A stretch of DNA of 64,000 bases from a virus. Below, one piece after another: positions 3,933 to 57,300 of the stretch. The notes under the pieces are model-generated. The model saw only the letters and a program-made list of their open reading frames with translations. It made no database searches and was not told the DNA's origin. The stretch's first letter is position 1, and the number at the start of each line of letters is the position of its first letter. The translations under genes were made by a program, and so were the position numbers. The stretch lies in the IMG/VR virus record IMGVR_UViG_3300005856_000023, positions 32,001-96,000 of that record. The stretch is one strand, 5' to 3'.

Positions 3933-4008
3933 TTTTTTTGCTATGGAATACAATAAGTTTAATAACAAAAAAAGAGGGAGGAGGAGAGTAGCCATGAAGA
4001 GCTTCTAA

Positions 4009-5745
4009 TTACCTTTGAACGATAAGTCTACCTACTACATTAGGATAGATTACAGATGCTCCGAATCTATGAACAGCAGTCATTGCTTGACCAAGAGTAT
4101 TTGCAGGATAAGGTATCATATGGGTTGCATAAGGTGCATATATTGCAGTGGAGAAGAATTCTTGTTTGGATTTGAGTACAAGCAAGTTCCTACCAACAGG
4201 AAGTATAGGTGTAGGTAATACCTTTATCCACTCTTCAGATCCATCTTTGCTTCTGGTGTATATCTTGAATGGGTCTGCTTTCGTTACAGGATCGGATACC
4301 CACTTACCTATGTTAACAAGTAGTGAAGCATCTTCAACATTCATCACAAGTATGGGTTCTACTTCGGGAACAGGTGTATTCCTGAGTATCTTACCAAGCA
4401 GGTTAGATATTGCATAAGGGAAATGAGTCATAACGTACATGCCTGGTCCCCAACTGTAATCAGCAAGAGCATCAGCGGTCATATCTACAGATTCTTCTAT
4501 GTTATGAACAAGTGATGCATTATACAAGTTCATTAGAAGGAATGCATCAGTGTTAAGTGCAATTATAGAAGATAGTATGCTGCTTACTTCGCCGAGTATA
4601 TCGAGATTGAAGAGAACTTGAGCATCAAAAGCCATTTCAGGAGATACAAGTATTGTGCTTTCAAGTCTATTCTCCGCAAGAGTTTGTCTTGCAAGTTCAA
4701 GTCTGAGCTTCCTAGCAGGATCTCTCGATTCATAGGCTACTCTTGCATATACCTCTATACCTTGAATTGCAGGAGCAGTTCCACCAGTTGCTATAACAGT
4801 TATAGTGAAATCACCAGATTTGAAGTCTACTCTACCAGTTACATTAACAGTGTAGGTATTGGCACCAATGGTTGCAGTTCCAGCTCCGGTTATAGCACCA
4901 GACGATTCAATATTGGAAGATACATTTATTGTTCCAGATGTCGTATCATCAGTTATACGAACAGCTATTACTCTAAAATCAGGTGTTACCCTAAGCTTAT
5001 TGTCAGGAGCAACAGTCGCAGGAGGCAACAAGTTAGCCTCACGTAGAATGTTATACACATTACCTCTTATTATCTCTTCTGCAGCAGGAGTTGTAGCGGG
5101 AACAAATACACCCTGCCCAGGAGCTGTTCCGTAATAGCCGAGAGAATCTCCACTGAGAAGTCTACCAGTTGTCATGTCTACTGATAGATAGGATGAGAAT
5201 GGATAAGGATTTGTAGAGTTAGTTAATTCCTCATAAAACCTGAAGAAGTAAACATACGAACCTGGAGCAGACATATTCCTGACATCATATACTTGCGTTG
5301 CAACAAGTCTTGGATACATAAACCTTATCAGAGGAGCCAAATACATAAAGTATGGTATCACATTAGCAGATGTATTTTCTGTAGCTATAGCCCTAAGACT
5401 ATTTTCATACAAAGTTTTAATGGCTTTGGATAGTGAATATACTTCTGCCTCTGATAGATTACCTTGTTCTGCAACTATATCGGTTACTATTGCATTGGAT
5501 ATTAAATCAATTACAGTCCTATCACCTTGTAAAGCTCTTTTTGCTAGTTCTGATATTTTATCTACAAATTCTGATGGATTTTTAGATGCATTAACCTTAG
5601 TTATATCCGAATAAAATTCTTTCACTATTTTCTTGGCATCTTCAGCATTCTTATTTGCCATTTCCATTGCTAGACTGTAAATTCTTTTTGTAGATATAAT
5701 TGAGTCAGATGGGTAAAATCTTGATAGTCTTACGTCTTTATCCAT
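4009..5745 (-). CDS. major capsid protein, T4 gp23-like, with probable N-terminal propeptide
   Basis: LIRFMYPRLVATQVYDVRNMSAPGSYVYFFRF and SPEMAFDAQVLFNLDILGEVSSILSSIIALNTD parallel conserved gp23 blocks; possible protease site AIATE|N; AGC-N11-ATG. Confidence 0.85.
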   Translation of the reverse strand: MDKDVRLSRFYPSDSIISTKRIYSLAMEMANKNAEDAKKIVKEFYSDITKVNASKNPSEFVDKISELAKRALQGDRTVIDLISNAIVTDIVAEQGNLSEAEVYSLSKAIKTLYENSLRAIATENTSANVIPYFMYLAPLIRFMYPRLVATQVYDVRNMSAPGSYVYFFRFYEELTNSTNPYPFSSYLSVDMTTGRLLSGDSLGYYGTAPGQGVFVPATTPAAEEIIRGNVYNILREANLLPPATVAPDNKLRVTPDFRVIAVRITDDTTSGTINVSSNIESSGAITGAGTATIGANTYTVNVTGRVDFKSGDFTITVIATGGTAPAIQGIEVYARVAYESRDPARKLRLELARQTLAENRLESTILVSPEMAFDAQVLFNLDILGEVSSILSSIIALNTDAFLLMNLYNASLVHNIEESVDMTADALADYSWGPGMYVMTHFPYAISNLLGKILRNTPVPEVEPILVMNVEDASLLVNIGKWVSDPVTKADPFKIYTRSKDGSEEWIKVLPTPILPVGRNLLVLKSKQEFFSTAIYAPYATHMIPYPANTLGQAMTAVHRFGASVIYPNVVGRLIVQR

Positions 5746-5867
5746 AACGTTCTTCTGCTAAAAAGTTGTGAGTAAACAACTTTAAATATTAATGCAAAAA
5801 ATTTTTTACAAGTATGCTAAAGATAATACTATAAGAAAACAAACATTTTATTATTGAATGCTATCAT

Positions 5868-7190
5868 TTAGTCGATATTATTCTCAAATTGCCAAACAAG
5901 ATAGTTAACCGATCCAACCTTCTTTGATTCTGGTGTTACAATAGGGTCCAAGTATCCCAACATATCTGTTACAAGTCTTATTTTGTGACTTAATCTCTTC
6001 ATTGCAAATTTATGAGCATATGTAGCCTTTAACTGTAACATAACTTCTGATATAGGATTATGTATTTTATCCTCTACATATTCAACTTGCATTATCTTAT
6101 ACAAAATGGATAGAGATGTTGAATGCTTTCTGGGCAATTTTCGTGTTCTAATTCTCTCATACAACAAATGCATTAGTTGTCTAACCAATGGATGCAATAA
6201 GAATGTTTTGAATCTTACTGTTTTGCTTTTTAGTGAGCTATACAAACCACAATTCTTTATATAATTGTAGAAGTCATTGCTTGGAACAAATGTAAATAGA
6301 AAGTAATAGGGATCTTTAAACTCCTGTCTAACCAATGGATCAAATATAGCACTTATCTCTCCATATAATAATGTCATTATCTCAAAAGAATGTTTGCCCA
6401 TAAGTCTTTCTAATAACCTACTCCCACCATAGTCCTTGAATGATTTTGCAAATCTTCTCCTATAATTGCTTTCATATGTTACATCTACAATTAATTGTTT
6501 ATTGACTGATGTATCTGTATACACAATAGATGTTTCCGTTTCTTGTATTGTTATGTATTTAACTTTCTTTCCTTTTGTTACAGTAGTTACTTTGTTTGAT
6601 TGATTATTACCTAACTCTTGCATATCAACTTGAAAGCCAGTTTGTTGTAAAACCATATACAACAAATCTAACAAGGATAAATTACTTTCCAATAAACTTT
6701 CATCATTCTTGAGCAAATACAATATCAAAAAGTTCAATACAGGTAATGTTTTATGTTTTGATTCATATAAGATTGGTTTTGTTTCATCTAAAATATTTTT
6801 AAACACTACTTTCCTATACAGATTAGATAATTTTGCATCCATACTCTCTGTTCCAAATCTATCCAAGAACTTATCTGCGATTGAGTAAATAAATACATAT
6901 CGTTGTCCATTAACTATTATGTAGTTTCCAATAAACCTAGGAATGAATGTTTTGTAATTACAAATTGCTCCATCCTTTTTATCCTTCAAACTATATTTGA
7001 TAGTGTAAACAGATATTAATCCGTCTGTTGACATGAGATCTTCTTCCTCAATTTGTAAATCAATTAATTCAGCATCAATCAGATCACAAAACCAAATTAT
7101 GGTATTTTTAACATCTTCTGTAATATTGTTTAATACTTGTTTGCGATATGAAATGGGTTTGCTGTCTATGTTTAGGTTTATGAAATACAT
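5868..7190 (-). CDS. multisubunit RNA polymerase beta subunit, N-terminal fragment
   Basis: FIPRFIGNYIIVNGQRYV (beta IP..G.FIING.ER block); C-terminal GYLDPIVTPESKKVGSVNYL (beta CPxETPEG.N.GL block); start moved to fit CTAAATTT-N6-ATG. Confidence 0.85.
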   Translation of the reverse strand: MYFINLNIDSKPISYRKQVLNNITEDVKNTIIWFCDLIDAELIDLQIEEEDLMSTDGLISVYTIKYSLKDKKDGAICNYKTFIPRFIGNYIIVNGQRYVFIYSIADKFLDRFGTESMDAKLSNLYRKVVFKNILDETKPILYESKHKTLPVLNFLILYLLKNDESLLESNLSLLDLLYMVLQQTGFQVDMQELGNNQSNKVTTVTKGKKVKYITIQETETSIVYTDTSVNKQLIVDVTYESNYRRRFAKSFKDYGGSRLLERLMGKHSFEIMTLLYGEISAIFDPLVRQEFKDPYYFLFTFVPSNDFYNYIKNCGLYSSLKSKTVRFKTFLLHPLVRQLMHLLYERIRTRKLPRKHSTSLSILYKIMQVEYVEDKIHNPISEVMLQLKATYAHKFAMKRLSHKIRLVTDMLGYLDPIVTPESKKVGSVNYLVWQFENNID

Positions 7191-7238
7191 GATAGTAAAT
7201 TTAGTATGTGTGCTCAAAAAAAATGTTTTATTTTTTTG

Positions 7239-7862
7239 TTATAGTAATATATCATCTGAATCTGATGATACATTAACAGTCACATCGGATAGATCCAAAT
7301 CCAATTCATCTTCTATGGTTGTTTTAGCAGTTTCGGATACTTTCTTTTTAGATGGCACTTCTGTTGTATATTTATTGTATAGTTCCCAGAATCTTGTGGC
7401 ATCTCTTTCAATTCTTTTTAATGTGGCACCTTTTCTCATTAGTTCTTCAATTGCATTAATAACCCTATCAATCTCCTCTTTGACATTTTCCAATACTTCA
7501 TCATTTATCTCATTATCCATTTTTGTTCCAATTTCTCTTAGATATAATGTATGATTATCTTTTATCACTGCTATGTATGGAGATGTTTTTAATCCTGTAG
7601 CTGATGTCAATCTGTTTGAATAAATCAATGCTACTGTATATCCATTCATATCATACAATTTGGTTCCTAACAGCAAATTCTCTCTTTTCTTAATCACAAT
7701 TACATGATCTTTGGATATTGGCTCAACTATTTTGAATTTTTTATCCACTGGAAATCCGACTAAATTGCTACCTACTGTTGTACAATAATATGTTTGTTCA
7801 TCATACTTAATAGGTTTGAATATGCTTGATAATTTTTCTACAGAGATAACTCTGATCTTCAT
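7239..7862 (-). CDS. hypothetical protein with acidic C-terminal tail
   Basis: ORF; class-1 promoter at ATG 7862; ends EDELDLDLSD...SDDILL. Confidence 0.75.
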   Translation of the reverse strand: MKIRVISVEKLSSIFKPIKYDEQTYYCTTVGSNLVGFPVDKKFKIVEPISKDHVIVIKKRENLLLGTKLYDMNGYTVALIYSNRLTSATGLKTSPYIAVIKDNHTLYLREIGTKMDNEINDEVLENVKEEIDRVINAIEELMRKGATLKRIERDATRFWELYNKYTTEVPSKKKVSETAKTTIEDELDLDLSDVTVNVSSDSDDILL

Positions 7863-7892
7863 GTCTATAAATTTAGACAAGTTGTAAAAAAC

Positions 7893-9044
7893 TCAAAACC
7901 AATCGATTTCATTTGAAGTATCTTTAACTGGAGATCTACCCAAATACATAAACAAATACAAAACTAAATGCTTTGCTATGTTTGAATACGTTTGCAATGA
8001 ATACTTACTTAGTATATCCTCTCTAATCTTAGGTATTGATATTGTTACATTATATAGTTTATTTATCTGATTCATATTGGTAGCATCCAATGGAAATCCG
8101 ACTACACTTATGATTTTATTTACAATCAATTTTAATTCATCATAACTCAATTTTTGTAATTGTTGAATGTATTGTTTGAATGTTTGTTTTGATATTTTGT
8201 TTCCGAGCATCTCGATTATAGTATCAACTAAATCATCTATTGGTTCAGGTTCCATTTTGAAGTTAATTATTGCATCATGATAATACCTACTGTAATCCCG
8301 TTCAGCAATCTCATCTTTAGTAATTTTCTTCTCTTTTGCTATATGTATTAGATTGTTTTTCAATCTGTTAGCATAGTTATTAACTCTTGCCCGCAAATAA
8401 CCCGTCCATACATTATGTATTTTTTTGGGTTCTCTATCAACTAATATTAATTGAGCCTTTCTTTCTGCAATTGACTCTAATAATCCTGATATGGATGAGA
8501 AATTGCTTGGATGTAATAAGTTAGATCTGGGTAATAATCTTCTGGCTTGTTCAAGATCATGCTTGTTAACTATTACAACAGACTTAGTTACTTGAACTAT
8601 AAACATGATAGCAGAAAACATAAAATAAAGATTACGAAGTATAGCTAGCTTATCTATAACTGGAATGTTATCACAATCTACTAACGCAACAACATCAGCA
8701 TGTAAGACAATAGCCGCAAGATGCCATCTGTTCATATAGTAAATTGAATTAGATAAATTTGGGTCAAGGGTTTTATGAAGTTTGAATACTAATTCCCTTA
8801 GTTCTTTTTGAACTATGCTAGTATTCGTATGCATCTTATCAAATAGTAGAGGACGAAATTTTTCTACACTGATAACATTTAAGTTGTCAACGTATGGTCT
8901 TATTTGAGTTGTAATTCTATCGGTTGTACGATACAGAGTTAGCATATAATCTTCAAAATTTTGAAAACCAAAATAGCGCACAATATGCCCAATTAGTTCT
9001 TTTTGTTGATTATTTAACCAGTGAACATATTTACAGTTCGCCAT
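7893..9044 (-). CDS. hypothetical helical protein; candidate RNAP promoter-specificity subunit
   Basis: 383-aa ORF with class-1 promoter, two genes from the RNAP beta fragment; function is inferred from context only. Confidence 0.35.
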   Translation of the reverse strand: MANCKYVHWLNNQQKELIGHIVRYFGFQNFEDYMLTLYRTTDRITTQIRPYVDNLNVISVEKFRPLLFDKMHTNTSIVQKELRELVFKLHKTLDPNLSNSIYYMNRWHLAAIVLHADVVALVDCDNIPVIDKLAILRNLYFMFSAIMFIVQVTKSVVIVNKHDLEQARRLLPRSNLLHPSNFSSISGLLESIAERKAQLILVDREPKKIHNVWTGYLRARVNNYANRLKNNLIHIAKEKKITKDEIAERDYSRYYHDAIINFKMEPEPIDDLVDTIIEMLGNKISKQTFKQYIQQLQKLSYDELKLIVNKIISVVGFPLDATNMNQINKLYNVTISIPKIREDILSKYSLQTYSNIAKHLVLYLFMYLGRSPVKDTSNEIDWF

Positions 9045-9063
9045 AATAGCTAAATTTAGCTAC

Positions 9064-9189
9064 GTTGTGCATTACTAATACGTAAACAGTTGTGAACTAC
9101 TCTATCTTGTAGAAGATGGAGCTTCCTACTTCACAGGAGCTATACGCTCCCTCCCTATAGAGAATGGAGACTTCTTACCTGATTTTTTT
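9064..9189 (+). ncRNA. candidate structured small RNA
   Basis: Preceded by the palindromic promoter TAGCTAAATTTAGCTA (9047-9062); GC-richer than background; stems CTCTATCTT-GTAG-AAGATGGAG and AGCTTCCT..AGGAGCT; ends at T7. Confidence 0.4.
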
Positions 9190-9207
9190 AAAAGCACATA
9201 ATGAAAT

Positions 9208-10947
9208 ATGTTTATTCCAAATCAACTTGCACCTGGTGTTTACATCAATGTTGTATTTGCGCCTGAACCATTAATTGGATTACCTGAAAAATACAATGCA
9301 TTATTCTTTATTGTAGCAGAGAAAGGACCTGCAAATAAACCAGTGTACATAACATCAGCTCAAAGATTTCTTGATACTTTTGGTCAGCCAGATCCGAAAT
9401 TCCCATTAACATCACTTTACGCATATGAATATGTTAGGAATGGAGGACCAGCATATGTGGTTAGATTACTTCCGAGAAATGCTACAAAAGCTAATGCTAC
9501 CTTAGCTCTTGTTCCTGACCCAGTTGATGCAAATACCTATGTATGGGCATATGGGTATGTAGATTACTCTACTAATACATTTATTGGTCGCGATGAAATT
9601 AATAATAGAAGTATATCACTACCTGTATCTGCAACTTATGCTCCACCAGAACCTAACAAAGCAGTTATAATTGCACAGTTTGGTGAATACGGTATGTATT
9701 ATAACACCTATAGATTGAGATTTTTATTACCGTTACTTAGAACAAACAAAACATTTAATGTAGTTATAGAAAGAGTTGTAGGAACACAAACTGAAAATGT
9801 TGCGGTATTCAATGGTGTTACTTTTGAACCAAATGTAAATGAATTGGGATACCCAACACAAATTAATCATAGTCTTTACACATTTAACCAACCAGCATTT
9901 GAATACTTAAAGGCTAACTACATAATAAAGTATAAAGATTATGAAACGAATACTGTTACAGATACTAATACAAGACCAATAGATTCTGTTGACATAGTGT
10001 ATTCAACTAATACAATATGGAATTTTGCAGGTGGTTCTGATGGTGGATTAAGAGATCCGCTTACAGGTTCGGTAGATTTCTCATTGTTTGCCGATCTAGT
10101 TGTAGAAGCTGTATATGGTTATACTACATTACTTCCAAACAGAATACAAGGACTTATTGATGATGAAACAATATTCATCAAATACATTGTTGATCCCTGT
10201 GATGAGAGATTTCCCTATGCAAAGAGAAGATTAGTATGGAATGCTTTAGTTGATTTGGCTCAATCCAAGTATATGCTTAATGCTGGTGCTATAGTTCTGA
10301 GTAACATAGCTGATTTGTTTGACTGGTCAGATATAGGACTTTTAGATTCAACCAATCCTCCTATACCTAGACATTATCTACATGCAACTTACTATTCAAA
10401 AATTGAGGATGTTGATGGCAGAATATATCCTCACCTTAGATATGTAGTTCAAAATATTGCTAAATTAAGAGTACAACAACAAAGTATTGAACCACTTGCT
10501 GGTATTATTAATGCTACGATAACAACAGGAGTAGATGTTATACCGAGATTAACAGTTCCTGAGAGATCAAGACTGGTAGAACTTGGAATTAACTTTGCTC
10601 ACAAAGATCCTTTCTATGGTGTATTTACTGATCTTGATAGAACTACATCACTTGCTCTCGGTAAATTTCTGTATGTAATTGAGGACGTTGTTGATATTAA
10701 GAGAGAGCTAGTTAAATTGCTAAGACCGTTTGTACATAAATTAGAAACTTATGATTGGGAGAGCGTCAAAAGTTTAATCATAGACTTCATACTAAAACCA
10801 AGAGTAGCAAGTGGTTTAATAAAGGAATATGAAGTTAACTTGAGATTATCCGAAGAATTAACTAGACAAAATGTACTAGGCATAGATATGAATCTACGAT
10901 ATGCTCGCGAAATAGAACGTATTGCAGTAACAATATATGTGAGATAA
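9208..10947 (+). CDS. contractile tail sheath protein
   Basis: APGVYINV, AEKGPANKPVYITS..F...FG, YVVRL, FAGGSDG, LVELGIN and the typical sheath C-terminal domain. Confidence 0.92.
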   Translation: MFIPNQLAPGVYINVVFAPEPLIGLPEKYNALFFIVAEKGPANKPVYITSAQRFLDTFGQPDPKFPLTSLYAYEYVRNGGPAYVVRLLPRNATKANATLALVPDPVDANTYVWAYGYVDYSTNTFIGRDEINNRSISLPVSATYAPPEPNKAVIIAQFGEYGMYYNTYRLRFLLPLLRTNKTFNVVIERVVGTQTENVAVFNGVTFEPNVNELGYPTQINHSLYTFNQPAFEYLKANYIIKYKDYETNTVTDTNTRPIDSVDIVYSTNTIWNFAGGSDGGLRDPLTGSVDFSLFADLVVEAVYGYTTLLPNRIQGLIDDETIFIKYIVDPCDERFPYAKRRLVWNALVDLAQSKYMLNAGAIVLSNIADLFDWSDIGLLDSTNPPIPRHYLHATYYSKIEDVDGRIYPHLRYVVQNIAKLRVQQQSIEPLAGIINATITTGVDVIPRLTVPERSRLVELGINFAHKDPFYGVFTDLDRTTSLALGKFLYVIEDVVDIKRELVKLLRPFVHKLETYDWESVKSLIIDFILKPRVASGLIKEYEVNLRLSEELTRQNVLGIDMNLRYAREIERIAVTIYVR

Positions 10948-10968
10948 TTTTTTTTACTAACAAAAAAA
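10948..10968. terminator. bidirectional hairpin-less T-tract terminator (representative)
   Basis: T8 after the sheath TAA and T7 (minus strand) after the convergent gene's TAA. Confidence 0.6.
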
Positions 10969-11928
10969 TTAAGATAGATGGATAGTTTGAATTGTTGCAG
11001 GATAAACTTTTATTTTTTGATCTCCAAATGTTGTTAATATGCTTTCAAAGTAAAAGTTTGGAGCTAAGACCTGATTATCATTTTCAACAATCTTTAAAAT
11101 TGGTTTAATAATAGCAATTGGATAAAGTAAAGGTCTATTAACTTTGTTGTTTATAATGATGTCTATAATCAAGTTTTCATCTTCATTATAAAGAAAACCT
11201 GTTATATCAAAAACAGTGTAGGTTACGCCAGAACGATTTATTGTTATTAATTCATTAGTTGATTCAACAGGTAATGTATATCTGTTACGAAGCACATTAA
11301 AATCAGAAATTAGTTTTGCTTTCGATAAATTAATTGCATAACTATAAACTTCAACGTTCAAAAATCTGTTGCTTATCATTCTAGCAAACAATGATGAATT
11401 TTGTTCATAATCTATAACCAAATCTACTATTAAAGCATTTGTTTTTGGTAAACGAAATCTTAAAAAGTTTTGTTGTAATAGGGAATTAGCATAAAATACT
11501 GGAATCGCATCTATATTTAACAATATCCGGTGTGCTAGTATTGGTAAGTAAATATAATCCAAACTACTATTGATATTTAGTTCAGCTAAAGTATGCTCTT
11601 GTGTTGTATTTGTAATTATATCTTGATAAACTATTTTGTAGATTATTTTATTTAGTGTCCAGTTAAAATTATAGACTTGGCTAAAGAGATAAGGTGTATA
11701 ATATTCTGGTGTTGTTACTAACCTAGTATGTTTATCAAAAGTCAAAGTTGTATAAGACCTTAGCAGACTCGTAGGTATTTCCAAAAACAGAAGACGATAA
11801 GAATTTCTGAGTGTATTTATGTCATAGGTATAATCTGTATGTTCTGCGTATAGGTTAAAAGTTGTTGAAATTACATTTGCTTCTATTAGTTTGAGTAAAT
11901 TTTCCAGATGTCTATTAACAACATACAT
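10969..11928 (-). CDS. hypothetical, probable virion protein
   Basis: 319-aa ORF; AGC-N9-ATG. Confidence 0.6.
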   Translation of the reverse strand: MYVVNRHLENLLKLIEANVISTTFNLYAEHTDYTYDINTLRNSYRLLFLEIPTSLLRSYTTLTFDKHTRLVTTPEYYTPYLFSQVYNFNWTLNKIIYKIVYQDIITNTTQEHTLAELNINSSLDYIYLPILAHRILLNIDAIPVFYANSLLQQNFLRFRLPKTNALIVDLVIDYEQNSSLFARMISNRFLNVEVYSYAINLSKAKLISDFNVLRNRYTLPVESTNELITINRSGVTYTVFDITGFLYNEDENLIIDIIINNKVNRPLLYPIAIIKPILKIVENDNQVLAPNFYFESILTTFGDQKIKVYPATIQTIHLS

Positions 11929-11933
11929 TTGCT

Positions 11934-12767
11934 TTATGCTTTATCATCTATATTGCCAAGCAGAAATTTCTCAAATTCTGTTATACTATCTTGTTTACGT
12001 ACAAGTAAATTAGGTATTGCTAACTTGATATTCTCAAAATACAACTGTCGTATTGGATATAAATATTTTATGGCTTGCTTAAATCTTAGCATTTTAGCAT
12101 ACTTACAATTACTATTCCTATACAACTTAAATACATCATCATTACAAGTTAAAGTTTGAGCAAGCCAAGTCTCGATATAAACACTAGTTATATCCAAACC
12201 TAGTAGTTCTGCTAACTGTTGGATTCTGTCAAAAGCTTTTTGACCATTCAAGCCATTTATCATGTTAAGCCAATCTGCCATTTGCTCTAGTATTGACATT
12301 GCAATATCAGCAGTTAACGTTAGATTTTCCACTCTAGCAAATGGTGTTTGTTCTTCAGGATAATACAACAAAGCCAAATATACATTTTTATCTTTAATCC
12401 TGAGAGTCAAATTATCTGATTCAGTATCTTGAGATTCTGCTTCAGATAACAACCTAGACAAAGGTCTATTTGTTTTTTGTAAATTAGCTTCGTTCAAATA
12501 TACACATACATAATGTATACCAGTAGTGTAATAAACATTACTATATTTTACATCATGTAAATCTATAGTCTCTTCGTTATCTAGCAAATCATATATTTCC
12601 AGAGCAATATCTCTATCCTGTGTAAAATATAACAATGGTATACAATAAAGTTCGTTTTCCTGTTTTAATATATGTGTTGTTTTAAGAATGATATACAAAT
12701 TAGGTAAATTTGTTAGCAATGTTACATTATCGCTGTCTACAGTAATAGGAATTTTATCTTTGCTCAT
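11934..12767 (-). CDS. RNA polymerase beta' C-terminal fragment (possibly virion RNAP)
   Basis: SVYIETWLAQTL resembles HIEVIVRQM; LYFENIKLAI...KQDSITEFEKFLLG resembles ASFQETTRVL...GK.D.L.GLKENVIVG; AGC-class promoter. Confidence 0.6.
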   Translation of the reverse strand: MSKDKIPITVDSDNVTLLTNLPNLYIILKTTHILKQENELYCIPLLYFTQDRDIALEIYDLLDNEETIDLHDVKYSNVYYTTGIHYVCVYLNEANLQKTNRPLSRLLSEAESQDTESDNLTLRIKDKNVYLALLYYPEEQTPFARVENLTLTADIAMSILEQMADWLNMINGLNGQKAFDRIQQLAELLGLDITSVYIETWLAQTLTCNDDVFKLYRNSNCKYAKMLRFKQAIKYLYPIRQLYFENIKLAIPNLLVRKQDSITEFEKFLLGNIDDKA

Positions 12768-12783
12768 TCTAGTTAGGTGCTAT

Positions 12784-48394: not shown

Positions 48395-48428
48395 GGCTTC
48401 ACCTCCTTTTAAAGTTTTCATAGTTTTA

Positions 48429-48457
48429 ATTATATACTTAGTCTAAAACTCTGTCAA
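48429..48457 (-). promoter_or_regulatory. consensus sigma70 promoter
   Basis: TTGACA-N17-TATAAT, exact. Confidence 0.85.
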
Positions 48458-48483
48458 GGACTTTTTTATGATTTCCATCATAA

Positions 48484-49242: not shown

Positions 49243-49254
49243 CTTGTCCCCTCC

Positions 49255-49776
49255 TTATTCAAGTTCTTTCAAAAGTTCTTCATCTTCAACGGGCAATTCT
49301 TCTACTCTACCGTCTATATGAAGTATAGTTATGCCTCTTGGCGGTGCTCCATATAGCCTCCCCGTTCTGCTCCATTTAATTTTTATTGCTTCGCTTGATG
49401 TTTCTACCAACACGCCCTCACTCACTCCCAAAGATCCTCTTGGTGACGAATATTCCCAAAACTTATACACTTTACAGTCTTCACAATCATACACTTCTAA
49501 GCTACTATCTCCCCTATAACCACACCCTTTGATGTAATAAAAAACATTTTTATTCGTGTCGGGTTTGAGTATAAGGGTTCTATCGCTCTTTCCCTGTTCT
49601 ATTCTTGCACCTTTGGCTGGAAAGATGAACCTTCTCGCTTCAATAAGTTCTTCGCTCAGAAGCTTTCTATTGATCCATAGCAGATAAGTAGGTCTGCCGT
49701 GAGTTTCTGCACCGATTTCCACATAATAAAACACCTTACCGTCCGCTTCCTTCTCATAAAGATATAGCTTTACCAT
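49255..49776 (-). CDS. hypothetical protein
   Basis: SD AAGGAGGTGA; 173 aa. Confidence 0.8.
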   Translation of the reverse strand: MVKLYLYEKEADGKVFYYVEIGAETHGRPTYLLWINRKLLSEELIEARRFIFPAKGARIEQGKSDRTLILKPDTNKNVFYYIKGCGYRGDSSLEVYDCEDCKVYKFWEYSSPRGSLGVSEGVLVETSSEAIKIKWSRTGRLYGAPPRGITILHIDGRVEELPVEDEELLKELE

Positions 49777-49837
49777 TGCATCACCTCCTTTCCCTTGTTT
49801 TAATCATCTACTAAGTTATATATAACCCCCCCTTCCC

Positions 49838-50350
49838 TCATTTCCTGACACTCTCCCTAAGGCTATACGTGTAGAATAGAGAATTTAGTATTATGTCTTC
49901 GTATCTTTTCCAGACGAGCTTTAGAAAGTCCCTTATGGGTTTTATGGCGGACCAGGTGGGAGAGGTCTCTACGTCCTTTAAAACCTTTTCTATTGTGTCT
50001 GGACGGACTTTGTAGACGGGGACTCCCTCTTCTTCCAGAATTTCCTTTCTGATATAGACCACAAAGGGCAAGGGTGCATAGAGTTTGGGAAAGCCCACCA
50101 CATACTCGGGAAGATGAATTTTGATGGAACAGGTGGTGAGGCTGACCCACACAGTCAAGGGCACCGCATGGACAAGGCCATCCTCTTCCACATGGAACAC
50201 AAGGACATATTCATTGGGCATCCAGAAGAGGTTTCTGAGCTGGCCTATCTCAACGGGTTGTCTTTTATCTTCCTTGACCCTTAACCTTTCCTCTCCTAAG
50301 CTCTCCTTGTACAGTTTCAGAAACATTCTCAGTTCTTCCTTGTCTAACAT
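49838..50350 (-). CDS. hypothetical protein, paralog of 46890-47390
   Basis: SD AAGGAGGTGA; shared motifs. Confidence 0.85.
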   Translation of the reverse strand: MLDKEELRMFLKLYKESLGEERLRVKEDKRQPVEIGQLRNLFWMPNEYVLVFHVEEDGLVHAVPLTVWVSLTTCSIKIHLPEYVVGFPKLYAPLPFVVYIRKEILEEEGVPVYKVRPDTIEKVLKDVETSPTWSAIKPIRDFLKLVWKRYEDIILNSLFYTYSLRESVRK

Positions 50351-50419
50351 GGCTTCACCTCCTTTTAAGTTTTTTTGCTAGGCTTAAATAACCCACCCCA
50401 CTGCGGCGGTGGGATAAAA

Positions 50420-51073
50420 TTAAGGGTAATAGACATACATGTCATAGCCTTCCTCAAAACCTTCTTTCTCTAAATTCACCTTTAAATCCTCCAATAGTCC
50501 TTTTCTCTCCTGTGGTTTCAGCGTTGCAAGTTTCTCAAAGAGGTCGCCAAACTCCTTCAACCACTTCTGATAATATCTTTCTATGTATGCCCTGAAAGCC
50601 CTTTCTCCGCTCTCTAAAACATCTTCATCCTTTAGAAGCATTCTTATCACCCAAACCAACTTGTGCCATTTCTCCGCCTTTTCTTTTTCCTCCTGAGTCC
50701 AGTTCTCCTCTACCGCTACACCCGACAGTCTTCTGTCTCTCACATCTTTAAAGAGGGATAAGACCGATTCCTTGTTCCAAATCTGGATAACCTCATTGTT
50801 CCATTCGGGTTCCACATAAACCAAGTTCCCTCCTATTTCAACTCCAATATAATCCAATCTTTCTAATGCATAAGGATTATCTGGACTTACCCTTTTTACT
50901 AACCAAACATTCCTAGCATCATCAAGTGGACAAAGCCACCAACGGATTGGCCAATACCAGTCCAAGTTTTGAATGGTAAATTTCCAGGGTACAGAAGGAA
51001 CTTGTGGCTTCTCATCATACAAACGGACAAGCATAACATCTACTTCAAATTGGATTTGTTGCAACTCTTTCAT
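50420..51073 (-). CDS. hypothetical protein
   Basis: Driven by cassette copy 51071-51190; SD. Confidence 0.8.
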   Translation of the reverse strand: MKELQQIQFEVDVMLVRLYDEKPQVPSVPWKFTIQNLDWYWPIRWWLCPLDDARNVWLVKRVSPDNPYALERLDYIGVEIGGNLVYVEPEWNNEVIQIWNKESVLSLFKDVRDRRLSGVAVEENWTQEEKEKAEKWHKLVWVIRMLLKDEDVLESGERAFRAYIERYYQKWLKEFGDLFEKLATLKPQERKGLLEDLKVNLEKEGFEEGYDMYVYYP

Positions 51074-51077
51074 GTTA

Positions 51078-52108
51078 CACCTCCTTTAAAAGTTTTTCTT
51101 GTATACAAATTTAGACAGTTTTTTTAACACATTCTTAAAGTGGATTATAAGTAAAAATTTCATGAACTACAACATATAATAAACTACATTTTACCAAAGA
51201 TTTAAAGGTTCAACAACTAAAATGTAATAGTCATAGCGAAAGAAAAAGAAAAATCTATCCTTTCTGTTGCAAGGTATTACATATTTGCAATCTACATAAT
51301 CTATCAAGTAAAGTAAAGCGTTCTTCTCATCATTAGGTTTAGTCAATCTTCTCAAAAATACGTCTCCACCAAATCTCCCTGTCATCAACATGTTCTACCA
51401 CGACCTTGCCTCCTTGCTTGTTTTCAATTTGCTGGGCTTCGCCCCTGGTTTGTAACTCTTTCATGATTTCACCTCCTGTAATTTTTCTTTTATGAGATTT
51501 ATTACCTCCTCAGCCAACTCCTTTCTTTCTCTCCTTGGCATCCAATCCCAGTCTGGGTTCCCTTTAAATACAATGTTTAGGATTTCATCAGGTTCCAGCC
51601 TATCAATGTAATATTTCAACCAGTTTTTCCATAGGTCCCTAACCCACTCTTCCGAATCTCTTATCTCCTTCCTTGCAATCAGTTCCTTCTTCAGAAGGTC
51701 TACCCACTCCTCCACACTTAGCCCTGCCCATTTCTCCTCCTTTCCTGCTAACTCTTCAATTCTTTCATAAATTTCCCAAGCTAACTCCTTCCTTTCCTCA
51801 GCCTCTAAATTGTTCCACTCGTCCATTCCACTCAAGAATGTGTCCATAATGGAAGCCAAACTCCACCCCCAACTCCTTTCAGGAGTAGTATCTAACCAAA
51901 TCAGTAGTCCTTTTGCCCAGTTTCTTGGCTTTCTAAGATAGTCATAGTAAAGACTGTCCCTTAGAAACTCAATAAATTGATTGAGTAGGGCTTCCCTATC
52001 CATATCAACATCTCCTTCATCGGTTTGGCTTTGCTGGGATACACTCCCAGCGGGGGTTTGAACTTGCTCCTTCCTTTCCATGACTTTACCTCCTCTTAAG
52101 GTTTTCAT
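51078..52108. repeat. ~1-kb direct repeat, copy B
   Basis: Matches 47398-48420. Confidence 0.95.
51461..52081 (-). CDS. hypothetical protein (copy B), with in-frame upstream ATG at 52108
   Basis: Near-identical to 47780-48394. Confidence 0.8.
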   Translation of the reverse strand: MERKEQVQTPAGSVSQQSQTDEGDVDMDREALLNQFIEFLRDSLYYDYLRKPRNWAKGLLIWLDTTPERSWGWSLASIMDTFLSGMDEWNNLEAEERKELAWEIYERIEELAGKEEKWAGLSVEEWVDLLKKELIARKEIRDSEEWVRDLWKNWLKYYIDRLEPDEILNIVFKGNPDWDWMPRRERKELAEEVINLIKEKLQEVKS

Positions 52109-52173
52109 AATTTTAATTTTAGACAAGTTTAGACGTAGTCAAGGTTTTTTTATGATTTTTATCATGTTTCCTT

Positions 52174-52257
52174 TCATGGTAGAAAAATAGCCTGCAAGTA
52201 TGCAGAATATATGCCGTCTCCCAAGCCCGCCCCAACTATGAGATTAGCAAAGAAGGA
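52174..52257 (-). pseudogene. 3' remnant of a paralog of 48484-49242
   Basis: SFFANLIVGAGLGDGIYSAYLQAIFLP* versus SFLANLMVGAGLGDSIYLAYLQAIFNL*. Confidence 0.85.
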
Positions 52258-52259
52258 AC

Positions 52260-52560
52260 ATACTATGCGGGCAAGCAACTTCTGAAAGAGATTGAAGATG
52301 CACTGCGAGAAGGGAAAACGGAACTTGTGAATAAAGCGGTCAAATGGTGGGTCTACGATAAGCAGCTATACAGGCTAAAAACGATTGCATGGACGGAGAC
52401 TGCACATGCTTATATGAAAGCAACGGTGGAACTCATAAAGGATGAAGAAGAGATAGTGGGCTATCAGTGGAGGCTGTCAAAAAGCCATCCGAGGGCAGAT
52501 ATCTGCGATGTTTATGCAAACGTGGATTATGGGCTTGGTAGAGGCGTGCATCCAAAAAAA
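52260..52560 (+). pseudogene. internal fragment of a Mu gpF/SPP1 gp7-like head morphogenesis gene
   Basis: RLKTIAWTETAHAY...GYQWRLSKSHPRADICD.YA.VDYGLGRGVHP; no proper start or end. Confidence 0.7.
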
Positions 52561-52582
52561 ACAGTAACCCTTTCCTTCTTCT

Positions 52583-53347
52583 TCATACTAACTCTTCAGC
52601 TGATCTTTCAATACATGATTTATCATACTTTAGACGGCTTCTTATGGTATCGCTCGCTGAAATTAGACATACTTCCCTGCTCCACCATGCTTCTTCTACG
52701 CAATTCTTCAATTTCTTGTGAAGGTAGATATACCCCCACCGCTCAGGTTCATCCTCATCTATCTCCACCTTTTCTATATATTTCTTTAAAAGCAACGGGC
52801 TTATTTCATACAGCATATTCAAAAACTCTTCTATTCTACCGCTTGAGCTTTCTATTAACTTGCTATTAATATTCTTGTTCCTGTAATCAAACCAGAAAGG
52901 ATTATAAAATGTAGTATGAGGATGGAACATTCTCGGTTCTCTTTTTACCATTAAACTTTTCCATCCATCTTGTCCATCTTGATTCTTGTGTTCTGGATGC
53001 AGTAGTTTTATGAAATCTTCTAAATTCATCGCTTCATCTAGCTCTACACTTCTTAGCCTTATGTGATAATCATCAGGGAAAATATAAGAGGCAAGAGTGA
53101 TGAAATCTTCTATACGCAGATGTCCAACGCCTTTCCAGTTGCTTTTTGTGAAATTTAGACTTAGCAACCAATCCAACAAATATTCGCGATTTAATTTCCA
53201 TTTGTAAGGGTTCTTGCGCAGACTATTCCTCATAAATGTTATTTCAACATGTTTTTCTGTTAAATTAAGCTCATAATCTGGGTATTTATATTCACAGTTT
53301 GGGTCTCCACATCTGTGTGTTAGCAAAGATATGTTTACTTTTTTCAT
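52583..53347 (-). CDS. hypothetical protein
   Basis: AAGGAGGT SD 7 nt before ATG 53347. Confidence 0.75.
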   Translation of the reverse strand: MKKVNISLLTHRCGDPNCEYKYPDYELNLTEKHVEITFMRNSLRKNPYKWKLNREYLLDWLLSLNFTKSNWKGVGHLRIEDFITLASYIFPDDYHIRLRSVELDEAMNLEDFIKLLHPEHKNQDGQDGWKSLMVKREPRMFHPHTTFYNPFWFDYRNKNINSKLIESSSGRIEEFLNMLYEISPLLLKKYIEKVEIDEDEPERWGYIYLHKKLKNCVEEAWWSREVCLISASDTIRSRLKYDKSCIERSAEELV

Positions 53348-53367
53348 CTCTGACACCTCCTTGTCTG

Positions 53368-53729
53368 TTAAGCTTCTTGGTAGTGAATGCTATAGCCCTC
53401 CTCTTCATAGCCTTTCAGAAAGCCCTCCATTTCCTCTCTTTTCAGCAGATGGCATGGGTAATCTCATAAACCCTAATCCTTGAGTGATAATTCCCACCAT
53501 CATTATGCATAATCCGGTCGTATTTCCAACAATCACACGGTTCTTCTACTATCACACACTCCTCTAATACTTGTAGGTTGTCTATCAACTCCGCCAAGCC
53601 CTCATCACCATTTATCCCATACACCTCATCATACCCAAAGCTTTCCACAACCACATTGCCAAGCACTCCGCGGTCGCAATACTCTCTCATGTCCCTTTCG
53701 TATTTGCACATGGTTTGCAACTCTTTCAT
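53368..53729 (-). pseudogene. frameshifted/internally deleted hypothetical gene (ORF stops at 53442)
   Basis: Protein-like tail LLKREEMEGFLKGYEEEGYSIHYQEA* continues in another frame. Confidence 0.5.
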
Positions 53730-53813
53730 GACTTCACCTCCTCTTAAGGTTTTCATAATTTTAATTTTAGACAAGTTTTAGACTTATCATGTGTAGTATG
53801 CTTAAAGTATATT

Positions 53814-54371
53814 TTACTCAACCTGTATAGCATAAAGATCTTTTAAGTTGCGATACATGCCCATGTAATCCAAGCCATATCCGATAATCCAGATGTTTTC
53901 ATTGTCTATGGTGAACAGACTGAAATCTGGCTTGTAGACATTATCTTTAGTTACGTTTGCCAGCAATGTAGCTGTTATTATTTGTTTAGCTCCTTTATTT
54001 TGTAAATGTTCTGTTACAAAATACAATGTTTTGCCCGTTGCCACTATATCATCAAGCAATAATACAACTTGATCTTTTATATTGTGATTTATGTCTTTAA
54101 TGAATTTAATGTTTCCGGATGTGAATGAGTTTCCATAACTGCTTACTTGGATGAAATCCAAAACAACAGGTATTTTGCTGAAAGCAGATGCTACATCTAT
54201 TGTGAAATAAATTGCTCCAGTTAGTATACCGATAATGAATAGTTTATTGATATTGTTTGTAATTAATTCTCTTTCTAAGTCGTTTACAAATTCGTTAATA
54301 CTTGATGTTATTTGTTTGTTATCAATAAACAAATGAGCTAATTTACCATCAGGTAAATGTATATATGACAT
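53814..54371 (-). CDS. hpt: hypoxanthine/guanine phosphoribosyltransferase
   Basis: GILTGA, VSSYG, VLLLDDIVATGKTL, IGYGLDY...YRNL; SD AGGAGGT before ATG 54371. Confidence 0.92.
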   Translation of the reverse strand: MSYIHLPDGKLAHLFIDNKQITSSINEFVNDLERELITNNINKLFIIGILTGAIYFTIDVASAFSKIPVVLDFIQVSSYGNSFTSGNIKFIKDINHNIKDQVVLLLDDIVATGKTLYFVTEHLQNKGAKQIITATLLANVTKDNVYKPDFSLFTIDNENIWIIGYGLDYMGMYRNLKDLYAIQVE

Positions 54372-54530
54372 AGTCCACCTCCTAATGCGTTTTGTAGCAA
54401 TAACAATTTGTATATAACCTTCTCTAGCCAATCTCTCTATAAATCTTCTTTCTGTGAATGTTAATTTGGAGTGATATCTTGCAATACCGCAACGTACTTC
54501 AGGGAATTTGTACTTAGATTTCTAGCAAAT

Positions 54531-55154
54531 CTACTTGTAAACTAAAATCTCTTTGAGATCAATAACTTTAACACTATATGGTTGCATACTACAGAATCTA
54601 TCATCAGGTTTATATGCAACATATATATACATATCATCAATAATGGTGTAATATAGAGGCATAAATGTATTTGCAATAACTAGCTTATCATTTTCTACGT
54701 CATAAACTATTTCTACACTTGATCTTGGATATTTTTTTACTGATTGCATAAACCATTTGTTAATGTTCTCATAATCAATAGTCTCATATATATCAAGCAA
54801 AGCCTGACTATCAATCTTAATGTTTTTGTTTATTTGTTCTGCATTTGGTATTATTCCATGATGTGCTACATAAAATCTATTGTTTGTGTAAATATTCGGT
54901 CCATTGTATGTATTTGTTTCTGTTTCTGGTATTGCTCTACTATGTAGTAATAACAACTTAGTTGGCATATATAAATCAACTAGTGTTTTGAATGTATCAT
55001 AATCTTTGTTATGTATTAAGCGAACATTAAAATCATCATCAACAATCAATGCACTGTAATTATCTCTACCTTTTGTTGGCAATATATCAAGCATATAATC
55101 AACTAAATCAGGCTCCAAATAATTCTTGCTGTAGGATAAAACTATGTTACACAT
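54531..55154 (-). CDS. class II (Ntn) glutamine amidotransferase, Gat
   Basis: N-terminal MC, HSRA, VAHHGII, IDSQ; overlaps the queC stop. Confidence 0.85.
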   Translation of the reverse strand: MCNIVLSYSKNYLEPDLVDYMLDILPTKGRDNYSALIVDDDFNVRLIHNKDYDTFKTLVDLYMPTKLLLLHSRAIPETETNTYNGPNIYTNNRFYVAHHGIIPNAEQINKNIKIDSQALLDIYETIDYENINKWFMQSVKKYPRSSVEIVYDVENDKLVIANTFMPLYYTIIDDMYIYVAYKPDDRFCSMQPYSVKVIDLKEILVYK

Positions 55155-55965
55155 GGCTTGCTCCTAAGGTAAGTCCAAATTTCTCAAGTTTTTGTTCTAG
55201 TTTCTGTTTATCCTGTAATGCTACATCCAAGAGCATTTTAACATCTTCATAACTTACCGGTTGAGAATCAAAATCTATTTCAATAGCATAATCTATTTGA
55301 TCTTTAACTTTGGCTCTTTTGAATGCTTCTATTCTAAATCTACATGAGTTACATACTCCACATGCTAAGTTGTTAACAGGATAATAGCAAGATGTTGAAT
55401 TTTTGAAATCTGCTCCAAGATATGCTCCAATCTTTACCAATTCTGTTTTTGTGAATCTTATTGTTGGACTTATGAAGAAGATTGGTTGCTCATAGGGATA
55501 GTATGTAGTAGCAAGAAACATTTCATTCAAATTCTCAAGAAATCTATCTGTGTTATCTGGGTATGCTCCCATTTCACTAATATTGAATGCAAATGATACT
55601 ATGTTAATGTTTAATTTGCGAGCATATTGTGCTCCTATCAGTGCAAACTGTAAATTCCTGTATGGAACTAAATCTACAGGAGCCTCTCTGCCATCAGATA
55701 CATCTACATCAATATCACTATTTCCATCTGTCAATTTTGAACCAAGTATTCTATCACTAATTTTATGCGTGATTAATTTTAATCCATTTGCAGAAGCAAA
55801 TCTTTTTGTAGATTGTAATTCAGCTTCTAATGCTTTTTGTCCATAATCAATAAACAACAATATAGGTTCAATCTTGTAAATATGTTGTAATATGCTAACA
55901 TTAACAACAGAATCTAATCCTGAACTGAATAGTACAATTGCTTTTTGGTTAGTTACGTTTGTCAT
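55147..55965 (-). CDS. queC: 7-cyano-7-deazaguanine synthase
   Basis: SSGLDS, DYGQ, VPYRN, YPD, SCY..ACGVCNSC..R. Confidence 0.95.
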   Translation of the reverse strand: MTNVTNQKAIVLFSSGLDSVVNVSILQHIYKIEPILLFIDYGQKALEAELQSTKRFASANGLKLITHKISDRILGSKLTDGNSDIDVDVSDGREAPVDLVPYRNLQFALIGAQYARKLNINIVSFAFNISEMGAYPDNTDRFLENLNEMFLATTYYPYEQPIFFISPTIRFTKTELVKIGAYLGADFKNSTSCYYPVNNLACGVCNSCRFRIEAFKRAKVKDQIDYAIEIDFDSQPVSYEDVKMLLDVALQDKQKLEQKLEKFGLTLGASHV

Positions 55966-55979
55966 AATGATAAATTTAG

Positions 55980-57300
55980 TTTACCTGCTAACTATCTTAA
56001 TCCAGTAAGCAATAACATTACAATAGATGTTTCAGAGTTTTGTACAATAAAATTGCTAACGATACTAGCTATGTCTTTTCTTATGATATCCTCCCTCTTT
56101 GTTTTCTTTACAGTGAACAGAATCTAGACATGCAAACAGTATAAAACTAAATGTAAACTGCAAACGATAAGTTGTCAAAATAAATTCTCCCTCTTTTTTT
56201 GTTTGGTTTTCTAAGACTATGGACTATAAATTTAAGCACGAATGCAATCAAACTATATCATAATTGTAATAATGTAAAATGCAACTAATGATATAGAACT
56301 GCAAAAGGAAACTTGAAGATTTCCTCCCTCTTTTTGTTTTACTGAACAGTCTATAAGTAAGTTTAGGCATAGTGAATAAAACTTTTACTACACTATAGCT
56401 AAACTATATAGTAAGTATATAGACGATATTTACTATGTATGATACACATATAAAATCAGCATACATTCATAAGCAATATTCAAAATACAGAATACAAAAT
56501 ATAGACAATAAGTCAAATAAGTATATAACATACTAACAGATATTATATAACTGATTTAACAATAGTATTTCTTTGTTTTGTAATACAGTATCTATATTCT
56601 GTATTCTGTTTAATTGTTACATTGTTATCTTCTTTTTCTGATAATCTATCTGTTTTACAATAACGTTATAGATAATATGTATACTGTATTGTTATTATTC
56701 CGTTCCGATATAGTAACAATATTTATAGCTTATTTATCCTCTATACGTTATGTGTACAACATATACCAAATATATAATTTAGCATTGCATGACAAACAGT
56801 GAAATAGAAAGACAAAACAATTAACAGATCAGATACAAAACGATACAATAGTTTCTATGCAATCAAATTTTACTTTTTGTTCTTTGCAGTAGAAATTTAG
56901 CTATTGTGATTACAGATTATAAAGAAAACTATTTTCTGTTTTTTGCAAACATATAATACCGTATTCTGTTATGCTATAGATCATAATCTGTTTACAGAGA
57001 AATATTTCTTTTTTTGTCTATTGCAATAGAATTCATTTTATTTCGATACAACTGTATTTGCAATCGGATTTAAAGAATCTTTCTGCTAACAGATATTTAG
57101 AAACAGTGTATCATATACATTTAAAATGTTTTCTGCAAACAAATATATTAGACTTACATCTATTGTTTAGAAGTTTTAATGCAATGCAATTCAAAAACAG
57201 TAGATAAGAAAGCAATAAGATTTAAGAAATGTATTGCATACAAAAAAAGCAAAATATTCACTAAGTCCACTTTTATAGTATGTGTTATCAAATGTATATT
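55980..57300. other. 1.3-kb non-coding AT-rich region, candidate replication origin or genome-end region
   Basis: No credible ORF; many TGCAA motifs; inverted repeat 56486-56505/56591-56610; three CTCCCTCT(n)GTTT copies. Confidence 0.5.

Follow-up and report, generated by a model that had tools for sequence, protein, structure and literature searches.

A C-rich element ahead of oligo-T runs in a polymerase-encoding phage, a candidate reinforced form of a hairpin-less terminator

What does a phage genome of about 30% GC do with a short C-rich word that recurs, each time ahead of a run of T, in its non-coding DNA? The question is raised by a 64,000-nt stretch, here called the window, that comprises bases 32,001-96,000 of the 129,010-bp virus record IMGVR_UViG_3300005856_000023 (G000). 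In it, an element of the form CCTCCCTC-T(n)-GTT lies behind the major capsid protein gene and in a cluster within a large non-coding region. The initial annotation pointed out that the element contains CCUCC, the core of the 16S anti-Shine-Dalgarno (anti-SD) sequence, and proposed that abundant RNAs ending in it silence host messages led by a Shine-Dalgarno (SD) sequence, while the leaderless phage messages escape; decoys for the 30S subunit on the other strand, strong terminators and origin-binding sites were named as fallbacks. The evidence gathered here favours the terminator among these. We give roughly even probability to the element being a cis-acting, polypyrimidine-reinforced version of a hairpin-less oligo-T terminator used throughout the phage genome.

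Four copies of a pyrimidine-rich element

The capsid copy (3964..3988, minus strand) consists of CTCTCCTCCTCCCTC, T7 and GTT. It lies 35 nt past the stop codon of the gene for a gp23-like major capsid protein (MCP; 4009-5745, minus strand; matched by PHROG major head proteins, with PF07068 listed for homologues) and runs in the direction of that gene, its CTCTCCTCCTCCCTC-T7 portion being a pure pyrimidine run of 22 nt. The other three copies stand on the plus strand, all inside one span of 250 nt in a non-coding region of 1,349 nt (55966..57314) between a divergent QueC-like gene (minus strand) and a plus-strand gene of unknown function. Copy 1 (CCTCCCTC-TTT-G-TTTT, 56090..56105) comes from motif search and repeat families D1 and D4, copy 2 (TCTCCCTC-T7-GTTTGG, 56186..56204) from the sequence and repeat analysis, and copy 3 (CCTCCCTC-T5-GTTTT, 56323..56340) from motif search and repeat analysis. 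The four C tracts are followed by T7 (capsid), T3+T4 (copy 1), T7 (copy 2) and T5 (copy 3). Copies 1 and 3 additionally share GAT-NN-CCTCCCTC...GTTTT..AC.TGAACAG (repeat D4) and look like the products of a duplication, and an AA[AC]T[TG]C[AT]AA box precedes every clustered copy by 23-36 nt (repeats D7 and D12).

The recurrence itself is real. Exact CCTCCCTC occurs three times in the window (3974-3981 on the minus strand; 56090 and 56323 on the plus strand) against 0.29 expected, a count reached in none of 100 dinucleotide shuffles. The longer core CTCCCTCTTT occurs four times (3971 minus; 56091, 56187 and 56324 plus), and ten times with at most one mismatch, against 3.04 expected. Extended to the whole 129,010-bp record, the search returned the same four copies of CTCCCTCTTT as the only exact matches (none expected), and the reversed pattern, used as a control, gave 0. 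The remark that C-rich words are otherwise rare in the native DNA is also broadly right: native pyrimidine tracts of at least 13 nt with at least four C outside open reading frames (ORFs) are found only at 3967 (minus), 56185 and 56320 (plus) and record positions 118545-118569, the remaining ones being antisense to coding sequence or inside islands of SD-led genes. The last of the four sites is a fifth, looser element, CTCCTTTTTCTCTCTTC-T8 (86545-86569 on the window scale, outside the window; minus strand, sense direction), which directly follows an unannotated ORF of about 62 aa (below the 70-aa cut-off used here) with a CCTAAATTT-N6-ATG promoter.

The 9.1-kb intergenic region, proposed as the site of a small RNA (sRNA), fared less well. 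The word CTCCCTCCCT is indeed present there (9147-9156, plus strand), but it has no T-run and does not belong to the family. It sits in a segment of 63-66 nt (9118-9185) of the divergent promoter region between 7893-9044 (minus) and the tail-sheath gene; RNA-library contigs of X3, X5 and X8 (3/4 libraries) skip 9118/9121-9185 and carry 14-17 other letters instead, and the word is absent from the 96%-identical relative G001. CTCCCTCCCT at 9147 is therefore a strain-variable indel rather than a conserved copy.

Minimum-free-energy folding leaves the C tract unpaired in all four copies, together with the 10-20 nt ahead of it, and the folding energies are no better than those of shuffles. No Rfam family was matched anywhere in the window. 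Small hydrophobic ORFs that cross the motif (for example MATLLLPLFLLL... after the capsid gene) were considered and rejected: the reading frame changes from copy to copy, G001 has lost the ATG, and L, P, S and F are encoded by any pyrimidine tract.

T-runs behind stop codons

The T-run that ends each copy has many counterparts. Crude calling of ORFs (minimum 70 aa, start at the first ATG, overlaps resolved greedily) gives 134 ORFs, which cover 93% of the record; in 74 of the 134, at least six T occur within 40 nt past the stop codon, as runs of 6-8 T that abut the stop in 22 cases. The base that follows these 74 runs is G in 48, A in 22 and C in 4. Convergent gene pairs have T-runs on both strands, as in TAATTTTTTTTACTAACAAAAAAATTA after the tail-sheath gene, where T8 (10948..10955, plus strand) directly follows the sheath stop and the A7 that serves the convergent gene comes 6 nt on. 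A plain T7-G likewise directly follows the stop of the helicase gene (3933..3940, plus strand), convergent with the capsid element.

Within genes, such runs are avoided on the sense strand. ORFs hold 17 sense-strand runs of at least six T, against 97.8 +/- 9.6 in 200 codon-order shuffles (0/200 as low), a depletion of about 6-fold, and runs of at least six A are near expectation (203 vs 236 in codon shuffles). A search for hairpin-plus-T terminators found 0 terminator-like sites in 55000-58000. These statistics support well the view that T(n)-G would be a general, hairpin-less transcription stop signal of the phage. Since T-runs are widespread behind stops, avoided in genes and not accompanied by a hairpin, the T(n)-GTT of the element would be an instance of this ordinary signal. 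What sets the element apart is the C tract. Among the 74 post-stop runs, the capsid run is the only one with 6 C in the preceding 8 nt, and the next highest count is 4.

In the proposed mechanism, the phage's own multisubunit RNA polymerases would read the T(n)-G part, a coding-strand run of 6-8 T with G as the usual next base, and the CCTCCCTC part would act as a rare all-pyrimidine extension upstream of the T-run that sharpens termination or 3'-end formation in cis. Where a transcript is all pyrimidine, its RNA:DNA hybrid should be of the weakest kind over its full length. A GC-rich DNA block of 8 bp in a 30%-GC genome may also rewind strongly behind the polymerase, in the stead of a hairpin. 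On this view, short non-coding transcripts arising within the region would have their 3' ends set by the three clustered plus-strand copies. Genes for the presumed readers are encoded in the record, outside the window: a homologue of RNA polymerase beta (914 aa, PF00562, E 2e-37) and one of beta-prime (PF04998, PF05000).

Hairpin-less oligo-T terminators are used by archaeal RNA polymerase and by eukaryotic RNA polymerase III (Pol III), and termination at T-tracts is also a feature of RNA polymerase II (Pol II). The phage signal resembles the archaeal and Pol III signals in that a run of T on the non-template strand suffices, no hairpin is present and the sense strand of transcribed regions avoids such runs. 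It differs in belonging to a very divergent, phage-encoded polymerase in a bacterial virus, and in having its T-run placed directly against the stop codon, most often with G as the next base. From a narrow check of the literature, we know of no C-rich, all-pyrimidine upstream module described as part of archaeal, Pol III or Pol II oligo-T signals. Oligo-T and T-tract termination is treated in PMC13385618 and PMC7615648. Among related phages, the terminator motifs of 201phi2-1 form stem-loops and those of AR9 are predicted as such, according to parts of the respective reports. The phage T-runs share with these Rho-independent bacterial terminators a U-rich 3' end, a position at gene or operon ends and a bidirectional arrangement at convergent genes; the GC-rich stem-loop is missing at the phage sites, as judged from the folds and from the search of 55000-58000.

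Contigs from RNA libraries touch the capsid end of the window. Four libraries were mapped on 1-20000, all as assembled contigs, so that RNA ends and strands are unproven; 33-39% of sampled words of 2000-11000 are present in libraries labelled hot-springs or microbial-mat metagenome. The X5 contig (record 16) spans 3977-5706 and has no loose end. The X8 contig (record 24) spans 3993-5265 and continues into 16 strain-variant letters (GGAGGAAGGGGGCAAT) joined directly to sequencing adapter, which places the fragment end at base 3977, as in X5. Both contigs, from two studies, end ...CCUCC on the capsid strand, 3 nt before CUC-U7, and give a weak hint that the capsid transcript ends at the C-rich element. 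The same ends fit, as weakly, the abundant RNA ending in CCUCC(CUC) that the initial annotation had imagined. Other contig or adapter ends near T-runs are at 7892 (1-2 nt before T6), at about 10941, where the X8 contig meets adapter 6 nt before the sheath T8, and at 261 (14 nt before T8).

Related strains allow the C tract and its surroundings to be compared. The two comparison genomes, both from IMG/VR and about 95-97% identical, are G001 (88 kb; found with the capsid protein) and G002 (found via the promoter pattern), the latter without both element loci. After its capsid gene, G001 keeps CCTCCCTC-T7-GTTATT exactly, while 7/12 of the preceding bases differ; this flank is a pure pyrimidine run in G000, G001 and the X8 variant, its composition held and its sequence not. 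In the non-coding region of G001, copy 1 is absent, within an indel of about 170 bp bounded by TGC[AT]AAC boxes; copy 2 is perfect (CCTCCCTC-T7-GTTTGG); and copy 3 is degenerate, reading CTTCTCTC-T5-GTTTTG, where CTTCTCTC takes the place of CCTCCCTC. CCUCC is thereby kept at the capsid copy and copy 2 and lost at copy 3. Because of these changes and the variable capsid flank, the C-rich core is not strictly held and pyrimidine content is. This pattern would weakly favour a constraint on composition, and it speaks against the exact anti-SD core being required. The 18-mer CCTCCCTCTTTTTTTGTT occurs in 11 IMG/VR stretches, 2 of them in G001 and 9 in unrelated contigs without BLAST similarity to the phage.

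Several observations weigh against the reinforced-terminator reading. The tail-sheath and other late genes manage with a plain T-run, and the enhancing effect of the C tract is a proposal. The capsid contigs end 3 nt before the T-run and not within it; assembled contigs cannot prove an RNA end or strand, the agreement of stops across two studies is a weak hint, and an X3 contig crosses the capsid site, its 562 additional letters falling between 3937 and 3956. Conservation says little, since all strains compared are about 95-97% identical. The class-1 matrix gave no plus-strand promoter ahead of the three clustered copies, and neither promoter class was found there. In addition, the plus strand of 55966-56893 holds 0 runs of at least five A (about 4 expected) and 4 runs of at least five T. 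Read by analogy with minus-strand genes, this pattern would be a signature of minus-strand transcription, the opposite of what the clustered copies call for.

Translation signals and anti-SD pairing

The anti-SD proposal rested on two premises about translation, and both hold at the level of sequence. The first is that phage messages are leaderless. An SD-like word precedes only 19 of the 134 ORFs, most of them in GC-richer, foreign-looking islands with strong AAAGGAGGTG leaders: 46.5-54.4 kb (46512-54371), 60.5-62.3 kb (60552-62316) and 33.8 kb (33762-34064), at about 40% GC. The native genes instead carry promoter-like motifs at fixed distances from the start codon. CTAAA[AT]TT lies upstream of 48 ORFs, 6 nt from the ATG in 40 and 7 nt in 6; the full class-1 layout, with examples at 17000-23000, is a T-rich [TA][GA]CA box-N5-CTAAATTT-N6-ATG. 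Among the other ORFs without SD, 60/71 have an [AT]GC[ATG] word, nearly always AGC[ATG], 5-16 nt before the ATG, at 8-10 nt in 41 of the 60; the capsid (AGCA-N10-ATG), sheath and terminase genes belong to this group.

These motifs recall phage AR9, for which the portions of PMC5312081 and PMC5449584 consulted describe an early promoter with an AT-rich box, AAATATATATTAT-(6N)-G, whose start point lies 6 nt downstream, a late promoter, AACA-(6N)-T-A/G(+1), and 5' untranslated regions of 26-491 nt. As in the AR9/phiKZ group, there are two promoter classes, here CTAAATTT-N6-ATG and AGCW-N8-10-ATG; the difference from AR9 is that the same geometry places the start point on the ATG or a few nt from it. 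Since SD sequences are lacking and the promoter motifs stand at a fixed distance from the ATG, it is a well-founded conclusion by analogy that nearly all native phage messages would be leaderless or near-leaderless. Two 5'-side ends of RNA-library contigs, each 12 nt inside an ORF (5733 vs ATG 5745; 7850 vs 7862), agree with leaderless messages without proving them. Four tandem paralogous genes of 172-174 aa (28740-31012) repeat the arrangement, each with the same spacer of about 62 nt and a CTAAATTT-TTTTTCT-ATG promoter.

The islands differ from this pattern, some of their genes having the CTAAATTT promoter about 32 nt upstream. One island also holds two near-identical segments (47391-47779 and 51074-51460; 387-389 nt) where no ORF was called, together with paralogous genes, and the island at 46508-54483 is absent from both G001 and G002. 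A Pfam search with 20 proteins from the islands, their neighbours and an insertion in G001 gave 4 with a match at or above the Pfam cut-off; the matches include a helix-turn-helix (HTH) protein from the G001 insertion, a phosphoribosyltransferase and a KH-domain protein, and offer no clue to the element. The island genes themselves are almost devoid of Pfam matches.

The second premise is that the host uses SD sequences. A G001-like phage contig (G005 contig C110) lies inside a metagenome-assembled genome (MAG) titled Thermodesulfobacteriaceae; because the contig is G001-like, it is not an independent strain. By binning alone, this MAG is a weak hint of a candidate host. It contains a full 16S rRNA gene with a canonical anti-SD tail that ends GGATCACCTCCTTTCT, and an SD is present in 10/17 crude ORFs on one of its contigs. 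The AAAGGAGGTG leaders of the islands fully match this tail.

From these premises follows an alternative in which the C-rich RNAs act in trans: the clustered units would be small phage RNA genes and the capsid tail a 3'-untranslated version of the same device, and an unpaired CCUCCCUC seed would pair with SD regions of host or phage-island messages and block their translation, much as sRNAs of Firmicutes do. This is a narrowed form of the silencing originally proposed, and we hold it to be unlikely. The fold of the copies is compatible with it, the C tract being single-stranded in all four and followed by a U tail, and so, weakly, is the capsid RNA that seems to end ...CCUCC. Precedents exist as well. 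In the parts of the literature consulted, C-rich or UCCC-motif RNAs that bind SD regions include the Rsa RNAs of S. aureus (PMC2790875), the multicopy LhrC sRNA of Listeria, whose C-rich motif pairs with SD regions (PMC4132741), and the 6C sRNA of Mycobacterium with its C-rich loops (PMC6486639). The phage element has in common with them an unpaired C-rich motif complementary to the SD, the possibility of multiple copies and a U-rich 3' end. It differs in that the motifs of Rsa, LhrC and 6C lie in hairpin loops of expressed sRNAs with validated targets, whereas the phage motif directly precedes the T-run and is known from sequence.

The match to the 16S tail is short. The element has the CCUCC core, and copies 1 and 3 also have GAU-NN-CCUCC, like GAUCACCUCC; the candidate-host tail nevertheless reads CACCUCCUUUCU and the element CCUCCCUCUUU, with an extra CUC, so that pairing with AAAGGAGGUG is limited to 5 bp and only the 5-nt CCUCC (CCTCC) is shared with the tail GGAUCACCUCCUUUCU. 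Duplexes between the four elements and the 134 phage start regions rank SD-led genes at the top, but the best duplex energies (-19.5 to -28.3) are matched by those of the reversed control (-19.2 to -25.8). The strain variants also count against pairing in trans, given the copy 3 without CCUCC, the missing copy 1 and flanks that keep composition and not sequence. No promoter was found for the small RNAs, with no plus-strand hit in 55966-56340, and the RNA amounts needed for global titration of SD sequences would be implausible. Neither anti-SD silencing nor the 30S decoy has positive evidence, and the 5-nt match, the copies lost or degenerate in G001, the variable flank of the capsid copy and the control-level duplexes speak against them. 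The broadest version, in which abundant RNAs ending in unpaired CCUCCCUC (the capsid tail and up to three small RNAs) would pair with SD regions, or mimic the 16S tail in some other way, and thereby tilt translation in an SD-using host toward leaderless phage messages, has premises that hold in the sequence and is, in our estimate, very improbable.

The opposite strand and the large non-coding region

The absence of a plus-strand promoter and the minus-strand type of run pattern raise the question of whether the other, purine-rich strand is the functional strand of the non-coding region. There, a leader RNA on the minus strand, directed toward the QueC-like gene, would carry A(n)-GAGGGAGG, and the sites could be start-less or mini-ORF SD sequences (ribosome traps or stand-by sites), remnants of leaders of lost SD-led mobile genes, or polypurine stretches whose stable R-loops prime replication. 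We regard this as improbable, yet keep it as a sizeable alternative on account of those two observations: with 0 runs of at least five A on the plus strand of 55966-56893, terminator-type T-runs are avoided on the minus strand of the segment, as they are in genes.

The promoters that such a leader would need are equivocal. A class-1-like minus-strand site at 56893-56916 scores 12.3 bits, below every real site (minimum 13.1), and is not conserved in G001. As read from the alignment, G001 has a perfect class-1 site of its own, TGCA-N6-CTAAATTT, upstream of copy 2, and in G000 a 1-nt insertion disrupts this site; the minus-strand promoter candidates of the region are not common to the two strains. 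The SD-led island genes share the envisaged layout, in which CTAAATTT stands ahead of an SD-containing leader of about 32 nt. Start codons give a similarly divided picture. At the capsid copy, the purine strand reads GAGGGAGG-N5-ATG (5 nt) and opens a 4-codon ORF (ATG plus 3 codons), and at copy 2 it reads GAGGGAG-N8-TTG (8 nt), where the ORF is 37 codons long in G000 but 5 in G001; copies 1 and 3 lack a start codon at SD distance. A purine-strand RNA at the capsid copy would furthermore lie behind the T7-G of the helicase gene and run antisense into the capsid gene, and the shared T(n)-G makes sense on the pyrimidine strand only.

The region around the cluster (55966-57314) has no ORF of at least 70 aa and no DNA match among deposited phages. 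It is AT-rich (26% GC), contains many inverted repeats, and has 16 TGC[AT]A boxes on the plus strand vs 7 on the minus strand and 7 GCAA[AT]C words vs 0. AGCW boxes situated 85-90 nt ahead of copies 1 and 3 were considered as promoters of RNAs of about 90 nt and rejected; they are not evidence of promoters, because AGC[AT] is no more frequent there (8.9/kb) than genome-wide (9.3/kb). In the interval that separates copy 3 from the right half of the region (56400-56700), G000 and G001 are wholly different over about 150-200 nt, G001 having tandem T-rich repeats (ttttttctattgt-like) and G000 inverted repeats (ACAGAATACAAAATATAGA / TCTATATTCTGTATTCTGT).

The composition, box asymmetry and inverted repeats of the region bear on an explanation at the DNA level, in which the elements and the TGC[AT]A boxes would bind a phage protein (as origin iterons or transcription-factor sites) or would be scars or targets of mobile insertions. 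Indels do adjoin the elements: 2.9 kb in G001 and 562 nt in the X3 contig lie between the helicase stop and the capsid element, and copy 1 falls in the 170-bp indel bounded by TGC[AT]AAC boxes. We consider this quite unlikely, since it does not account for the strand-specific association with T(n)-G or with the direction in which the capsid gene is transcribed, and a position between two convergent genes, as at the capsid copy, is odd for an origin. Cumulative GC skew is uninformative here: it tracks gene orientation, has its minimum at 86 kb and does not turn at the region.

The DNA between the helicase stop and the capsid terminator (3937-3956) is an insertion hot spot, and the 12 nt beside the C tract are hypervariable. 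The G001 insertion there (L021 14480-17394), of 2.9 kb, carries the HTH protein gene and three unknown ORFs. An end-like sequence, GGG[CT]AGGGTGT[TC]CCA(C)-T7-GTCAAATTA, is found in the window at 26757-26790, inside a 532-nt intergenic region (26.3-26.8 kb) that is itself a breakpoint between G000 and G001/G002, and again where the G001 insertion ends (L010 4803-4835); it may be the terminus of a mobile element. Gene order in G000 differs from that in G001 and G002, with junctions at 26332, 38332, 46508, 54483, 60382, 85930 and 86862 on the window scale, and 46508 is joined directly to 86862 in both. The record end is also joined to its start in G001 and G002, which suggests a genome that would be circularly permuted or closed, of about 129 kb +/- islands, rather than one at the estimated 50% completeness.

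Further genes in the window code for the tail sheath, large terminase, a DnaB-like helicase, ribonucleotide reductase and a QueC-like protein. Elsewhere (L008 9421-11241), a family-B DNA polymerase has an N-terminal domain of the uracil-DNA-glycosylase superfamily (PF03167, E 1e-23) fused to its exonuclease domain. The RNA polymerase beta homologue is just 25-27% identical to those of AR9, phiR1-37 and YerA41, and the capsid protein has only 2 homologues (97% and 57% identity) in a set of 5.8 billion proteins and no protein match in the deposited phage collection; the phage therefore belongs to a deep, unstudied lineage of polymerase-encoding phages.

The gene grammar that surrounds the element is more striking than the element itself: leaderless genes with fixed-distance promoters, T-runs that abut stop codons and neighbouring mobile islands of SD-led genes. 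If the reading of the element as a reinforced oligo-T terminator is true, this grammar would be a compact one, in which each gene has a fixed-distance promoter that starts the message at or near the ATG and a bare T-run after the stop. It would offer a bacterial-virus case of hairpin-less termination in the style of Pol III and archaea by a multisubunit polymerase, in a lineage known solely from hot-spring and mat metagenomes, with an RNA polymerase about 25% identical to any studied one. Plain T7-G and CCTCCCTC-T7-G would form a natural pair of weak and reinforced terminators for the effects of upstream sequence on RNA release. The same grammar raises the question of how a phage with leaderless genes competes for ribosomes in an SD-using host, to which the C-rich tails would be the only sequence lead from this analysis.

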